Shown: piece after piece, positions 2,150 through 60,260 of the stretch
Layout of the letters: each line of letters opens with the position of its first letter
How positions within the stretch are numbered: position 1 is the stretch's first letter
Source of the DNA: an uncultured Gammaproteobacteria bacterium
GTDB lineage: Bacteria > Pseudomonadota > Gammaproteobacteria > JAURND01
DNA: 64,000 bases
Assembly (NCBI GenBank): GCA_963797335.1
Contig: CAWCOU010000006.1
Location: forward strand, 760,483 to 824,482
Direction of reading: 5' to 3'
Translations under genes and position numbers: made by a program
The notes under the pieces: generated by a model
The model's database searches: none
Seen by the model: only the letters and a program-made list of their open reading frames with translations
Told to the model about the DNA's origin: nothing

Positions 2150-2270
2150 CCCCACCTCATCCCAAGCACTCCACGCCACCCCGACGCTCCCCGCCATCTC
2201 GACGCTCCACGTCATCCCGAGCGAAGCGAGGGACCCCCCGAATGTGGCACAACGCAAAGACCCGTGTATT
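2150..2270. repeat. Partial copy (left arm plus loop) of repeat family F2, core gtcatcccgagcgaagcgagggac
   Basis: Shares cgtcatcccgagcgaagcgagggacc and the atgtggcaca loop motif with the copies at 5028-5157 and 8731-8893. Confidence 0.6.
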
Positions 2271-2288
2271 ATGTGGTTGATGATCTAC

Positions 2289-2430
2289 CCCCTTAATTGG
2301 GAAAGACCCAAGTTAATTCAACGTCGTGCGTATGGGTTTAAAAATTTTGAAAACTATCGATTAAGGGTTAGGGTATTATGTTCTTGAAAAACTGCCCCCG
2401 TAATTGGGAAAGACCCAAAAGACCCAAAGT
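2289..2430. repeat. Direct repeats ccccNtaattgggaaagacccaa, two copies ~105 bp apart, between tRNA-Gly and the Sel1 gene
   Basis: cccccttaattgggaaagacccaag at ~2291 and ccccgtaattgggaaagacccaaaagacccaaag at ~2396, seen in sequence. Confidence 0.5.
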
Positions 2431-2443
2431 TTTGAAATTTGAC

Positions 2444-2520
2444 TGGAGCGGGAAACGAGACTCGAACTCGCGACCCCAACCTTGGCAAGGTTGTGCTCTA
2501 CCAACTGAGCTATTCCCGCT
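2444..2520 (-). tRNA. glyW: tRNA-Gly (anticodon GCC)
   Basis: Reverse complement gcgggaatagctcagttggtagagcacaaccttgccaaggttg...gagtctcgtttcccgctcca folds as a cloverleaf. The anticodon loop is cttGCCaa and the CCA end is encoded. Confidence 0.85.
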
Positions 2521-2542
2521 AAAGAATAATAAAGGATGTCTA

Positions 2543-3109
2543 TTATTGTTTATTTGACGAAAAAGTCAAGTCCGACCACGCGGCTTTTAAGTACAACAGC
2601 ATAGACCACAAGGTCAGTAAAGCGGCGATGTATAAAAGCACTAAGCCTATGACCTTGATGGCAACCGGGCTATAGGGGTGATGGTATAGCAGCAGCAGTA
2701 TCAATGCTATCATCTGTGCGGCCGTTTTAAATTTGGCTATCCACACCACTTTTATGTTAGCGCGCTTCCCTATTTCCGCCATCCATTCCCGTAACCCTGA
2801 AATCAAAATTTCGCGGGCGACGATAATCGCTGCCGGGATGGTGAAATAATAGACGCCAAACTCGCCCACGACTAATACCAGTGCCACCGCTACGGCCAGT
2901 TTATCTGCCAATGGGTCGAGGAAAGTGCCAAATTGGGAGCCTTGGTGAAGATTGCGGGCAAGGAAACCATCCAGCCAATCGGTCAGTCCTGCGATGGCAA
3001 ATAAGATGGCCGTCGCCATATGTGCCCAGGGGAATGGCAAATAGAAACACGCCACGAAAATGGGGATTAATAGGATTCGTAAACAGGTGAGCATGTTAGG
3101 GATAGTCAT
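2543..3109 (-). CDS. pgsA: CDP-diacylglycerol--glycerol-3-phosphate 3-phosphatidyltransferase
   Basis: 188 aa, with the CDP-alcohol phosphatidyltransferase motif DWLDGFLAR...GTFLDPLADK. Synteny uvrC-pgsA-tRNA-Gly as in E. coli. Confidence 0.9.
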   Translation of the reverse strand: MTIPNMLTCLRILLIPIFVACFYLPFPWAHMATAILFAIAGLTDWLDGFLARNLHQGSQFGTFLDPLADKLAVAVALVLVVGEFGVYYFTIPAAIIVAREILISGLREWMAEIGKRANIKVVWIAKFKTAAQMIALILLLLYHHPYSPVAIKVIGLVLLYIAALLTLWSMLLYLKAAWSDLTFSSNKQ

Positions 3110-3159
3110 GGTTCGTATTCTACCAACAATAAATGAGCAATAGAAGAAAAGAAAAGTGG

Positions 3160-57721: not shown

Positions 57722-57753
57722 AGTCATCAAGGGAAGAAAGAGATTTCCGTGGT

Positions 57754-58275
57754 TTATTTGATGCTAATTAAATGTACTTTAAACACTAACGGTTGGTTTG
57801 GGCCGATCACGCCGCCGGCGCCGCGTTCACCGTAGGCTAATTCGGCGGGGATATACAGCATCCAAGTTGCGCCGGTATTCATGAGTGGTAACGCTTCTTG
57901 CCAGCCTGGAATAACACCGGTCACCGGGAAGGTGGCGGGTTGACCGCGCTGGTATGAACTGTCAAATACCTGCCCGTTAATCAATCGGCCTTCGTAATCC
58001 ACCGTCACTGTACTATCTTTGCTCGGTTTTTTCCCAGTTCCTGCCGTTATAATTTCGTATTGCAAACCGCTGGGTAAGGTGACGATTTTGGGTTTATGTT
58101 TATTCGCTTCCATAAAAGCTTCACCTGCTTGTTTATTGGTGTCGGCCACATTCGCCGAGCTGGTTGTCGGGACGGATGATGAACTGTCATCGGCTGCAAG
58201 TGCAGCGAGTGGTGCACACAGAAATAGAGATAAAGCGCCAACCGCTATTCCGCTCAATAGGTTTTTATTTTTCAT
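57754..58275 (-). CDS. FKBP-type peptidyl-prolyl cis-trans isomerase (short Mip/FkpA-like), secreted
   Basis: 173 aa with a signal peptide and FKBP domain [19 protein letters not shown]...[14 protein letters not shown]...[11 protein letters not shown]. Confidence 0.88.
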
Positions 58276-58362
58276 TTGGGTGATCTCCTTATTTAAACAA
58301 TCGCAATGCTCATTCGAAGCTCGTCGTGCCTGCGGGACGGTGACCCCGATGAGCTGTGCACC

Positions 58363-59187
58363 TTAAGCAGGTACAGGGTGATACGATACCATATTAAAAA
58401 GTGACTGCAAATTGGAAGATGTGTTGGCGGGGAATTGCCAAGCTGATGGGTATTCGACGACCGTTAGATAGAGTCCTTGGGGTGGTGCGGTGATACCCGC
58501 CTGGCGACGATCCTTGGCCAATAATACGGTATGGGCCCATTCCGGTGTTCGCTTCCCGGTGCCAATATCCAATAATACCCCGACGATATTACGCACCATG
58601 TGATGCAAGAACGCATTGGCGGTAATCGCCACGGTCACAAAATCACCGGTTCGGCGCACCTGCAACTGCCGTACGCAACGATGCACCGTTTTGGATTGAC
58701 AATCGGCTGCGCGGAACGAGCTGAAATCTTGTTCGCCTACTAAAAACTCTGCGGCGGCTGCCATGGCATCGACGTTCAGCGCATACGGGAACCACGTGAC
58801 TTGCTGGCGAAAGATGGCAGGTTGTGCGTGGTGATTATAAAGAACGTACAGATAACTACGTGATAAAGCAGTGAAACGGGCATGGAAGGTTTCAGCAACC
58901 GGGGTCGCCCATTGCACACGAATGTCCGCTGGTAAGTAGCGATTGATTCCGGCGACAAACGCCGATTCTCTTCTGGAAACGCCGGTATCAAAGTGAACGA
59001 CTTGCGCTAAGGCATGGACCCCGCGGTCTGTTCTTCCGGCACACGTCACTTGTACGGGATGATTGACTATCTGGGCTATCGCTGCTTCTAAGGTCTGCTG
59101 GATGGTTTTGCTGGGCATGTTCGATTGGGCTTGCCAACCATGATATGCACTACCCTCATACTCCACACCTAATGCCCAACGCACCAC
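58363..59187 (-). CDS. truA: tRNA pseudouridine(38-40) synthase
   Basis: 274 aa, ALGVEYEGSAYHGWQAQ...GRTDRGVHA catalytic Asp motif. Confidence 0.93.
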   Translation of the reverse strand: MVRWALGVEYEGSAYHGWQAQSNMPSKTIQQTLEAAIAQIVNHPVQVTCAGRTDRGVHALAQVVHFDTGVSRRESAFVAGINRYLPADIRVQWATPVAETFHARFTALSRSYLYVLYNHHAQPAIFRQQVTWFPYALNVDAMAAAAEFLVGEQDFSSFRAADCQSKTVHRCVRQLQVRRTGDFVTVAITANAFLHHMVRNIVGVLLDIGTGKRTPEWAHTVLLAKDRRQAGITAPPQGLYLTVVEYPSAWQFPANTSSNLQSLFNMVSYHPVPA

Positions 59188-59199
59188 ACGACCTCGCTG

Positions 59200-60078
59200 T
59201 TATTTTTGTTCGGCAGCTTCTGCTTGTAATATAATTTCCTTAGCTTCTGCCTGTTGTTCTGCCGTGCCTTTATCTAACACCATTTGTAGTGTTTCTCGCA
59301 CCGCCTCTACATCCGCCATTTCCAGATAGGCTCGGGCTAAGTCTAGCCGAACCGGCATGGCATCGGGGCTGTTCATAAAATCAAACTCATCGTCATCACT
59401 GTCGTGCTGTGAGAATGCCACGGCTTTATCGGTAAAGTCTTCTTCGCTTTCAACCAGGTCATCGTCTAAGTCGAGATCAGTGGCTTCGTCGGCTTCTTCC
59501 AGGAGTAATTCGTCGCTCTCTTCATCTTCATCTTCTTCATGACTTTCCAGCAATAAGTCTTCGTTGAAGTCAAAGTCGGATTCGTTCTGGTCTTCTTCTT
59601 CGGCTTCTTCTAAGAGATCTTCGCTAAACGCGCTGTCTTCCATGGCGGGTCGTAAGGGGTCTTCGGCAAATGCAACCGGGTCTGGTGGAAAATGTTTGGG
59701 TCGTTCCGGCGTCGTGGCGAGTTCAGAAACGGGTTTTGTTCGTGGGACTAATAACCATATTAATCCCGCGACGGCGGCGACGATCAGGGCAATTCCTAAT
59801 AATAGTAGCCAACCCATCCCGCTAAATAAAAAGTCTAAGAAGCCTTGTTGATTCATTCCTTTCGATAGTTGGCTGGGGTCAATGGTTTGCACCTCGGCTA
59901 AGGATTGCCGGAGCTGAACGACTTGCTGGCTTAGGGTGATGACTTGTTGTTGTAAACTGGTATTTTGTTCGCGCAGTGCCTGCCATGCTTCTGGGGTAGG
60001 CGACGATGGCGGTTCATCGGCCCAAATGGGGGTGATGATCAGCCCCAGGAGAATGAGGATCCAGCGGGTTGTTTTCAT
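59200..60078 (-). CDS. Short FimV-like protein (signal peptide, coiled coil, one TM, acidic D/E-rich tract, conserved FimV C-terminal domain)
   Basis: C-terminus LDLARAYLEMADVEAVRETLQMVLDKGTAEQQAEAKEIIL resembles the FimV C-terminal motif. Lies immediately upstream of truA, a conserved FimV position. Confidence 0.6.
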   Translation of the reverse strand: MKTTRWILILLGLIITPIWADEPPSSPTPEAWQALREQNTSLQQQVITLSQQVVQLRQSLAEVQTIDPSQLSKGMNQQGFLDFLFSGMGWLLLLGIALIVAAVAGLIWLLVPRTKPVSELATTPERPKHFPPDPVAFAEDPLRPAMEDSAFSEDLLEEAEEEDQNESDFDFNEDLLLESHEEDEDEESDELLLEEADEATDLDLDDDLVESEEDFTDKAVAFSQHDSDDDEFDFMNSPDAMPVRLDLARAYLEMADVEAVRETLQMVLDKGTAEQQAEAKEIILQAEAAEQK

Positions 60079-60153
60079 ACTTGTTTACCTTTGGAAGATT
60101 TTAAAGTCCATCTGTATAGAGTAATCTATTGTAAAATATCTTGTTCCAAGATG

Positions 60154-60260
60154 CTAATTTTTACCCCTCATCCGCCCTCACGGGCACCTTCTCCCACAGG
60201 GGGAGAAGGAAAATATTTAGAAAATTTGAATTATTTAACGCCCCCACAAGGGAAGGGGGG
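60154..60260. repeat. Repeat family F5 copy (diverged) in the folB upstream region
   Basis: acccctcatccgccctcacgggcaccttctcccacagggggagaagga ... cgcccccacaagggaagggggg. Confidence 0.65.

Follow-up and report, generated by a model that had tools for sequence, protein, structure and literature searches.

The stretch of DNA analyzed here, hereafter referred to as the window, comprises 64 kb of core chromosome from an uncultured gammaproteobacterium, and its most conspicuous features are small palindromic repeats in the gaps between genes. These repeats belong to known kinds of element, namely, repetitive extragenic palindromic (REP) sequences tagged with CGTC or TGTC, a second cosmopolitan REP-like module, and two palindromes that resemble transposable elements of the miniature inverted-repeat type (MITEs). 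The window has a GC content of 43 to 51% and contains pgsA-uvrC-gacA/letA, leuS, pnp-rpsO, pepN, dnaQ, rnhA, folD, cysS, gltX, the lepA-lepB-rnc-era-recO cluster, dnaB, rplI, purF, accD, truA, and 5S and 23S rRNA genes. The window also codes for a major outer membrane protein of the Legionella type, a Mip-like FKBP, and proteins with Sel1 repeats, which suggest that the lineage is probably related to the Legionellales. The organism is probably host-associated. A cyanobacterial origin was rejected, since the motif HIP1 (GCGATCGC) had no match in the window and the gene content is gammaproteobacterial and Legionellales-like. The nearest relatives are metagenome-assembled genomes named "Gammaproteobacteria bacterium," with identities of at most 79% for PNPase and at most 95% for LepA. 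For comparison, we used the closest relative (L189; Logan SRR24524611; LepA 95% identical in amino acids and ~81% in nucleotides) over a syntenic segment of 8 kb and two contigs (L003 and L190) of a more distant relative (ERZ25039590; protein identity of 79 to 89%, with 79% for PNPase).

Repeat families were recovered by self-comparison of the window and by profile searches with nhmmer, and motif enrichment was judged against dinucleotide shuffles. The gene map was restricted to open reading frames (ORFs) of at least 100 amino acids, and therefore the gene for SdhE (Sdh5; ~80 amino acids, ~45345-45585, minus strand), which adjoins SLT_4 here and in the relative, was missed. A search of the window against Rfam returned only rRNA and tRNA at gathering thresholds and meaningless microRNA-hairpin matches at relaxed thresholds; no Rfam family covers the CGTC-type hairpin or the F5 module described below.

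A preliminary description of the window, made from the sequence alone, had reported five families of intergenic palindromes (F1 to F5), often at convergent 3' ends and amounting to at least 17 elements in 64 kb. All five families were recovered, with motif counts far above chance, and we counted at least 20 elements, which cover 2610 of the 7547 intergenic bases (~35%). Some of the positions first assigned to them were approximately 10 to 50 nt early: F2 is real, but the starts given at 2150 and 5028 fall on degenerate "stutter" copies of the unit head, and the F3 site at 42134 is an extra solo end fragment, whereas the F3 copies at 16758, 42183, and 43879 are genuine. An enrichment at 3' ends was also borne out, and a palindromic element is present in six of the seven convergent gaps of the gene map without sdhE. 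When sdhE is added, the intergenic total decreases by ~240 bp, the repeat share rises slightly, and the gap at 45202-45590 is split in two, one part being a shorter convergent hyp123|sdhE gap that keeps the 45241 palindrome and the other a short tandem gap. The CGTC hairpin pattern was observed 10 times compared to 0.02 times in the shuffles, the F5 hairpin 4 times compared to 0.01, and the F3 terminal repeat 6 times compared to 0.00. A generic structural census of tagged hairpins, done with a crude script, had given 6 compared to 4.6 in shuffles and was replaced by these pattern counts.

None of the elements interrupts a gene, in agreement with the initial statement that all genes are intact. 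Positions 1-2100, which seem to be ORF-free, correspond to a Sel1-like gene on the minus strand that leaves the window. The existence of a pseudogene in 1-2443 was ruled out, because one minus-strand frame is open over 2200 nt and encodes a Sel1-like protein. In two cases, an element reaches into the final codons of an ORF: the REP at 8730 provides the TAG stop (8746-8748) of an ABC-transporter ORF, and the inner end of the right composite repeat discussed below covers the last 18 nt of cptA. Two listed ORFs, 42156-42494 (plus strand, 112 amino acids) and 43517-43867 (minus strand, 116 amino acids), lie wholly in F3/F4 repeats. Their peptides (SLRAKRGNLQ, RHCERSAAIS, and VIASEARQS) are translation artifacts of the REP hairpin that could readily be mistaken for hypothetical proteins, and spurious ORFs of this type (...SLRAKRGNL... 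and ...RHCERSAAIS...) should not become gene annotations.

CGTC-tagged REP units

F2 comprises six units at 2210, 5042, 5131 (minus strand), 8732, 8771, and 8839 (minus strand), which are arranged as one singlet, one dimer, and one cluster. The singlet (2169-2252, plus strand; pattern match and Tandem Repeats Finder [TRF]) consists of a unit at 2210-2233 that follows an 18-nt stutter array of the unit head. The dimer (5037-5155; fold z = -5.8) lies in the uvrC|letA-like gap and is formed by the inverted units at 5042 and 5131 with their tags pointing outward. The cluster (8726-8897; z = -11.5; TRF) contains the unit at 8732, whose loop holds the TAG stop of the ABC-transporter ORF mentioned above, a near-perfect inverted dimer (8769-8864), and a 20-nt stutter (8848-8897). 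F4 was reported as a single and a triplicated copy, and these correspond to 42347-42456 and to a 110-bp × 3.0 tandem array at 43529-43858 (94% matches, TRF).

The units of both families share a layout, namely, CGTC-AT-CCC-GA-GC-GnA-GC-GA-GGG-AT in F2 and CGTC-AT-TGC-GA-GC-GnA-GC-G(y)G-GCA-AT in F4. An unpaired CGTC tag precedes the stem, whose first two pairs are A-T and T-A; tandem G.A pairs and a two-pair GC clamp come next, and the hairpin is closed by a GNA triloop (GCGnAGC), which is the classical GCGAAGC mini-hairpin. A common gagcgaagcg core with compensatory arm changes had already been pointed out in the preliminary description. F2 and F4 are indeed related in this way, through the core GAGCGnAGCG and the compensatory arms (ATCCC/GGGAT in F2 versus ATTGC/GCAAT in F4), and the same stem position covaries in metagenome matches. 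Further stem variants are ATCCT...AGGAT in contig L190 and ATTCC...GGAAT in viral contigs, and in two F2 copies that end in GGGAC the first stem pair is lost. All 10 F2/F4 units start with CGTC, as do the units at 34390 (minus strand) and 45241.

The latter two represent elements beyond F2 and F4. The convergent Sel1|gltX gap holds a decayed dimer (34283-34395) whose stem is of a second CGTC-REP type (CGTC-T-TCCCGCGG-CATGT-CCGCGGGA) and which is 80.6% identical to L190 16083-16144; its unit at 34365-34395 combines a stem of 8 bp with a loop of 5 nt. The palindrome at 45241-45330 (z = -4.3), in the convergent hyp123|sdhE gap, was initially considered solitary. It is a decayed inverted pair of CGTC-REP units (CGTCGTCCCGCGG...) around an F5-type half hairpin and corresponds to a decayed dimer of the 34365-type variant, of which intact dimers exist in the distant relative (L003 9805-9935 and L190 ~16010-16140).

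Taken together, the window contains at least 14 CGTC-type units. Dimers are found at 5037-5155, 8769-8864, 34283-34395, and 45241-45330 and in each F4 unit. Apart from one copy, which owes its position in the divergent lepA|sixA gap to the inversion described below, the elements lie in tandem or convergent gaps, at most ~50 nt from a stop codon. Stutters of the unit head, 18 to 21 nt in length, flank three REP sites (TRF) and occur also in L190.

Judged by tag, stem, and arrangement, F2 and F4, like the elements at 34365 and 45241, fit the published superfamily of CGTC/TGTC-tagged REPs (Di Nocera, De Gregorio and Rocco 2013, BMC Genomics 14:522; PMC3733652). That survey describes (i) a terminal CGTC (or TGTC/CCTC), AT at the first two stem positions, and a short C-rich (CCA-like) tail; (ii) families 1 to 4 with stems of 8 to 9 bp and loops of 4 to 5 nt, with atypical loops in Bradyrhizobium CGTC-1; (iii) a prevalence of inverted dimers located just after ORFs in unidirectional or convergent gaps, which sometimes supply stop codons; and (iv) the lack of a dedicated transposase. 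According to the same survey, the superfamily predominates in Alphaproteobacteria, is present in Coxiella burnetii, and includes dRS3 of Neisseria and RPE-4 and RPE-6 of Rickettsia, and no RAYT (REP-associated tyrosine transposase) flanked by CGTC units is recorded there. The repeats of the window share with this superfamily the unpaired tag, which is CGTC here and TGTC in L190 and the majority of foreign matches; the A-T/T-A pairs at the start of the stem; the tail, which is CTCC(A) in the window and CCA in foreign copies; the arrangement as inverted dimers, each able to form a single long hairpin; the location after stop codons and the occasional supply of a stop codon; the lack of an adjacent transposase; and the coexistence with other repeat types. 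They differ from it in that F2 and F4 have nine stacked stem positions and a 3-nt GNA loop, so that only the 34365 type fits the description literally, and in that the host is a gammaproteobacterium; the likeness is one to the description and not to a family consensus.

The F5 module and the distribution of the hairpin cores

F5 is a two-hairpin module that consists of CCCCTCATCCG, a small covarying hairpin, and an invariant hairpin CCTTCTCCC-N5-GGGAGAAGG. The copies first noted at 28815, 49025, and 60154, together with fragments, were all found again, and we count three double hairpins and four single hairpins or fragments, one of which is located within the 45241-45330 palindrome. On the plus strand, a double hairpin occupies the convergent folD|cysS gap (28807-28904; profile search, fold, and pattern), another lies between rplI and dnaB (49003-49094; z = -4.5), and a further F5 copy is found in the divergent hyp292|folB gap (60155-60256; profile search and pattern). 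An F5-like double hairpin that is present in neither relative lies in the lpxH|recO gap (36762-36835, plus strand; profile search); this gap measures 183 bp in the window and 16 bp in L189, and the two genes overlap in L190. On the minus strand, a single F5-type hairpin with a T-rich tail directly follows the pepN stop codon (16934-16958), and a head fragment (CCCTCATCCGCCCTCACGGGCACCTTCTG) without the second hairpin lies at 26519-26557 and is 100% identical over 28 nt to 60165-60192.

Of the repeats, which had been suggested as possible terminators, only some of the F5 type look like terminators in sense orientation. Terminator-like F5-type hairpins in sense orientation follow pepN (16958-16936, the top terminator-like match in 1-20000), folD (28836-28858, the first hairpin of the module), and lpxH (36766-36791). 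In contrast, F1 to F4 have no T-tails, and the hairpin with the strongest terminator shape in F5 (49026-49050, with a T8 tail) is antisense to its flanking genes; the hairpin at 60187 lies in a divergent gap. Total numbers of terminator-like hairpins barely exceeded those of shuffled sequences (28 versus 23, 30 versus 23, and 37 versus 24).

The hairpin cores are not confined to this lineage, and the exact patterns of F2 and F4 recur in hundreds of unrelated metagenome and viral contigs. The F4-type pattern (20 specified bases) had 76 matches in 64 IMG/VR contigs with a GC content of 38 to 73%, and 15 of these matches had an inverted partner within 160 nt. In JGI metagenome contigs, the F2-type pattern was matched at least 149 times, in at least 120 contigs with a GC content of 28 to 73%. 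Among the 149 matches listed, (i) the free stem position was T-A in 96, C-G in 49, and not a Watson-Crick pair in 4; (ii) the variable loop base was A in 63, C in 63, T in 13, and G in 10; and (iii) the preceding base was T in 124, which results in a TGTC tag. The F5 pattern (CCCCTCATCCG, a small hairpin, and CACCTTCTCCC-N5-GGGAGAAGG) was matched at least 182 times, in at least 120 viral contigs, with a mean GC content of 66%. In an alignment of 52 F5 sequences, including two copies from the window, the first hairpin showed 22 to 25 double compensatory changes per pair and the second was invariant. Both modules are near-identical across genomes of ~28 to 74% GC and in viral contigs. A viral scan with a CGTCnTCCCGCGG-type REP and another with the end shared by F1 and L003 gave no match. 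When the literature was searched by sequence string, the F4 core appeared in no paper, and the F5 strings matched only unrelated primers.

In a group of related viral contigs (L038 5192-7759; L014, L024, L025, L028, L029, L034, L041, and L056), a large, structural-looking ORF (...EASLRAERGNL...) contains an F4-type hairpin in frame; this is an intragenic REP of the type reported for the Rickettsia RPEs.

MITE-like palindromes and the sixA-cptA inversion

F1 and F3 are longer than the elements described so far. F1 is present in three copies that are 89 to 93% identical and have palindromic ends GGGTATGCACACATCTTTTT. F1a (13753-14058, minus strand), a near-palindrome of 306 bp, lies in the convergent leuS|pnp gap 6 nt past the leuS stop codon (nhmmer E = 3e-116; in inverted orientation, 92 to 93% identical to F1b and F1c). 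F1b (26152-26473, plus strand; alignment and profile search) is a near-palindrome of 322 bp with a diverged right end in the gloB/mltD gap, and F1c (57395-57746, plus strand; 352 bp), located between accD and the mip-like FKBP gene, adopts the fold of a single long hairpin (minimum free energy of -198.5 kcal/mol, z = -19.2). F3 also has three copies (16758-16902, 42183-42326, and 43879-44022) of 142 to 145 bp, whose 28-nt terminal repeats match at 27 to 28 of 28 positions. The first of them, F3a (145 bp, plus strand, z = -9.4), is located upstream of the rpsO leader. The coding capacity of F1 and F3 is limited to spurious ORFs of at most 87 amino acids. Both families have the anatomy of MITEs, with terminal inverted repeats, a length below ~600 bp, no coding capacity, and three copies each.

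The distant relative carries a palindromic hairpin element (L003 16465-16584; core unit of ~85 nt, terminal repeats of 27 nt) that shares 84% identity with either half of F1. Because of this identity, F1 looks like a palindromic doubling of an ~85- to 120-nt hairpin unit around a central GGGGAGAGGG/CCCTCTCCCC hairpin. F1 had no match in a plasmid collection or among viral sequences, F4 had no plasmid match, and the only match of the F3 end pattern in 185,579 species genomes was a chance one inside a coding gene of Omnitrophota. In these searches, covering plasmids and viruses for F1 and species genomes for the F3 end, the two families were not found outside the lineage and appear restricted to it.

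F3 and F4 are joined in two inverted composites of ~380 bp, 85 to 88% identical, which lie exactly at both ends of a segment of ~1 kb that carries sixA and cptA (ygfX-like). The left composite (42110-42491, plus strand; self-comparison and TRF) consists of a solo F3 end (42133-42157), F3b (42183-42326), a 21-nt stutter (42326-42367), F4 (42347-42456), and an inner 35 nt. The right composite (43493-44097, minus strand; 85 to 88% identical to the left copy) consists of an inner 36 nt over the cptA stop codon, the threefold F4 array (43529-43858), F3c (43879-44022), and a solo F3 end. In both relatives (L189 and L190), the gene order is marC(-) sixA(+) cptA(+) lepA(+). In the window, the sixA-cptA block (42492-43492, plus strand) is opposite in orientation to marC and lepA, as evidenced by a strand switch in blastn, and remnants of the ancestral marC-proximal and lepA-proximal spacers persist just outside the composites. 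Since L189 is closer to the window than L190 and both have the same arrangement, the inversion is derived in the lineage of the window. This repeat-bounded inversion of sixA-cptA is a new finding of this analysis.

The inversion would have arisen in one of two ways, namely, by homologous recombination between two inverted composite insertions or by intramolecular replicative transposition, which would produce a second inverted copy and the inversion in a single step; a mechanism of this kind is likely. No target-site duplications are recognizable at the inversion junctions, and the outer boundaries are fuzzy. Because the composites are only 85 to 88% identical, the inversion is an old event and probably not a working switch. 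It resembles other inversions bounded by inverted copies of mobile elements, which result from recombination between inverted IS (insertion sequence) or MITE copies or from intramolecular replicative transposition, in that a flipped two-gene segment has inverted repeats at both junctions and remnants of its former flanks, and it differs from them in that the bounding element is a noncoding composite of two small repeats and not an IS. Having moved sixA-cptA away from the lepA operon, it provides a clean, polarized example of repeats that bound a change in gene order. The usual partner of sdhE is ygfX/cptA, which here lies ~2 kb from sdhE within the inverted segment.

Origin and age of the repeats

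The closest published analogues of these repeats are the CGTC REP superfamily and the QMITE1 and QMITE2 elements of Coxiella burnetii, of which each genome contains ~50 copies each (Wachter et al. 2018, BMC Genomics 19:247; PMC5896051). The QMITEs comprise a MITE of 300 to 400 bp and a MITE of 150 to 190 bp around a REP hairpin, with direct repeats of 2 to 3 or 7 to 11 nt. QMITE2 is located mostly at 3' ends, overlaps ORFs by 1 to 10 bp, has related hairpins in Alphaproteobacteria, and contains a GTAG REP core that is targeted by the IS110 family (PMC5896051). Compared by description only, both sets of repeats occur in an intracellular-type host of the same broad group and fall into similar size classes (F1 on the one hand and F3, F4, and F5 on the other), and an IS110-family gene abuts a truncated repeat in the relative of the window. 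They differ in the core, which is GTAG in QMITE2 and CGTC here, and in the direct repeats, of which none is definable here. With REP doublets (REPINs) and their RAYTs (Bertels and Rainey 2011; Nunvar et al. 2010), the repeats of the window share an inverted REP pair that forms, with a short spacer, a hairpin of ~100 nt, singlets that look like decayed dimers, and a long vertical persistence with no bursts; unlike REPINs, they have the tag CGTC and no GTAG, and the window has no RAYT gene.

In the distant relative, a small gene with a DUF559 domain (Vsr-like endonuclease fold; L003 12369-12713) lies between inverted copies of an ~190-bp repeat (L003 12124-12935). About 90 nt upstream of the gene for an IS110-family transposase (21003-22082), another copy of this repeat is truncated at ...CTTGCGGGAG (L003 20736-22082). 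As in the case described for Coxiella QMITE2, the truncation seems to reflect the insertion of an IS1111-style element into a REP hairpin.

We consider it probable that the intergenic DNA of this genome has been colonized by at least two classes of small noncoding hairpin repeats and that their expansion is old. The first class would be of the REP type, with units of ~25 to 50 nt, and would include F2, F4, and the two further stem variants, with F5 as a second cosmopolitan module; its units are arranged as inverted dimers with outward tags, as stutters of the unit head, and once as a tandem array of three 110-bp units. The second class would consist of the longer, lineage-restricted, MITE-like F1 (300 to 350 bp) and F3 (142 bp). 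Both would spread nonautonomously, copied in trans by an enzyme that recognizes a folded single strand; for GTAG REPs, such an enzyme is a RAYT-type HUH transposase. Their persistence just downstream of stop codons may reflect that insertion is tolerated there and that hairpins can end or stabilize transcripts.

The preliminary description had favored five MITE families in active or recent proliferation; in this explanation, the families would be mobilized by the transposases of resident ISs. The anatomy of F1 and F3 (140 to 350 bp, terminal inverted repeats, no ORF, three copies each) speaks for this view, as does the IS110-family transposase beside a truncated repeat copy in the distant relative. 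All five families are missing from the syntenic 8 kb of L189, whose gaps there measure 177, 90, and 16 bp compared to 699, 498, and 183 bp in the window. Since L189 lacks the elements at orthologous sites, they were gained in the lineage of the window or lost in that of L189 after the split, which also speaks for this view. Three observations leave "active or recent" unsupported: (i) copies are 6 to 25% diverged, with no identical pairs longer than ~30 nt, and the composites, which arose after the L189 split, are already 12 to 15% diverged; (ii) the window was found to hold no transposase, and target-site duplications were not recognizable; and (iii) homologous elements exist in the relative with 79 to 89% protein identity. 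The contigs of this relative (L003/L190) carry the same kinds of elements (F1-, F2-, and CGTC-type), mostly at nonorthologous sites, including an F2-like TGTC dimer with the compensated stem ATCCT/AGGAT (L190 5080-5170). Nor is a division into five MITE families supported. A described REP superfamily accommodates F2 and F4 as well as the elements at 45241 and 34365, so that F2 and F4 correspond to an already described element set, and these repeats have no MITE-type link to an IS; F5 is a copy of a cosmopolitan module, with the viral matches given above, and the F2, F4, and F5 cores are cosmopolitan REP-type hairpins and not IS derivatives. We therefore regard an active or recent proliferation of five MITE families as unlikely; on the evidence of divergence, the expansion appears to be old rather than current and to reflect long-term turnover with no present burst.

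A second explanation holds that the hairpins are mainly functional elements of the host, such as terminators, stabilizers of mRNA 3' ends, or protein-binding sites, which are kept by selection, and that their similarity reflects constraint. In its favor are the palindromes in six of the seven convergent gaps, the strong covariation, the sense orientation of the top terminator-like matches after pepN, folD, and lpxH, and a hairpin of the form CC(T/C)TCTCCC...GGGAGA(A/G)GG that the window and L190 have in common in the rplI|dnaB and folD|cysS gaps, although the surrounding element sequence differs. Against it, F1 to F4 lack T-tails, 49026-49050 is antisense, one F5 copy is in a divergent gap, terminator-like totals are close to those of shuffles, and L189 does without these elements at the same gaps. 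In addition, function leaves unexplained the conserved unpaired tags, the shared spacers, the dimers, stutters, and tandem arrays, and the identity over 27 nt across genomes of 28 to 73% GC. Selection for a host function as the main cause is accordingly considered quite improbable.

That the repeats are artifacts of assembly or of a chimeric genome, with collapsed or misjoined foreign repeats, is hardly credible: the F2, F4, and F5 cores do match the search patterns exactly in many unrelated organisms and short-read contigs do break within elements, but three independent short-read contigs (L001, L191, and L192; run ERR11523675) are 100% identical to the window, also across the unique-to-repeat junctions on both sides, the elements are embedded among intact syntenic housekeeping genes, and independently assembled relatives carry the same kinds of element. 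These contigs validate the sequence of the window and show that the elements break assemblies, since all six contig ends lie inside F1, F2, or F5; for example, L001 begins at 26423 within F1b, L191 starts at 8842 in the F2 cluster, and L192 ends at 60210 in F5.

Several points weigh against an old colonization by two classes of mobile hairpins. (i) Among the ORFs of the 64-kb window, there is no transposase, RAYT, Y1/HUH protein, or IS. (ii) In ~180 foreign loci, no recurrent protein family was found beside the hairpins, and clusters reflect related phages only; this agrees with the 2013 statement that CGTC REPs have no dedicated transposase. (iii) The alignments of F1 and F3 show no consistent target-site duplication, and only one F3 insertion is independent; the empty sites of L189 (~81% nucleotide identity) are too diverged to place junctions, so that no target-site duplication is definable for any family. 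(iv) The F2/F4 stem, with five Watson-Crick pairs, two G.A pairs, two Watson-Crick pairs, and a 3-nt loop, is not a literal match to CGTC families 1 to 4. (v) The F5-type hairpins at the two gaps shared with L190 suggest that some copies may be kept for a function at 3' ends and would not be purely selfish. (vi) The breaks of the short-read contigs are explicable by the presence of at least three copies within the window or by palindromy, and a high copy number is not proven by them.

A more speculative idea, which we put forward as a rather doubtful possibility, is that the CGTC/TGTC hairpins and the F5 modules are recognition sites of a widespread trans-acting enzyme that copies or moves them, for example, a single-strand-specific transposase or recombinase, which phages might carry. 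If so, a small genome (contig of ~1.3 Mb) that is dense in both modules would be convenient for finding this enzyme by exhaustion.

The presence of REP-type and MITE-like hairpins in the window adds an uncultured gammaproteobacterial lineage to the carriers of dense repeats of both kinds and leaves the knowledge of how such repeats work unchanged. A single-genome view understates the spread of the CGTC/TGTC hairpins and the F5 module, which are widespread in soil metagenomes and viral contigs over the full GC range. In practical terms, one can predict where short-read assemblies of this organism will break, namely, within these elements.

A number of other features were observed in the window. 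(i) A MazF/PemK-like toxin gene (6116-6550) and a gene for a 421-amino-acid MobH/TraI_2-type relaxase-like protein (9876-11141) lie among housekeeping genes next to leuS and may be left over from an integrated conjugative element; short-read contig L191 shows the same arrangement. (ii) Two 46-nt direct repeats (2266-2311 and 2373-2418), 85% identical and 107 nt apart, are located just downstream of tRNA-Gly(GCC). Each of them holds a small CCCCC..GGGAAAG hairpin, and they could be a duplicated tRNA-trailer/terminator sequence or an old integration scar. (iii) The alr|SLT_4 gap contains a unique, near-perfect palindrome of 79 nt (46207-46285; stem of ~26 bp, z = -10.3), which has a single copy in the window and no T-tail and overlaps the predicted TTG start of SLT_4. 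(iv) An S15 leader upstream of rpsO (16565-16674, minus strand) scored 34.1 bits compared to a gathering threshold of 39.5 (E = 2.8e-6), and the S15 leader of the relative was above this threshold with 48.6 bits. F3a lies ~84 nt upstream of the leader in the window, and the listed rpsO ORF of 125 amino acids is overextended at its 5' end.

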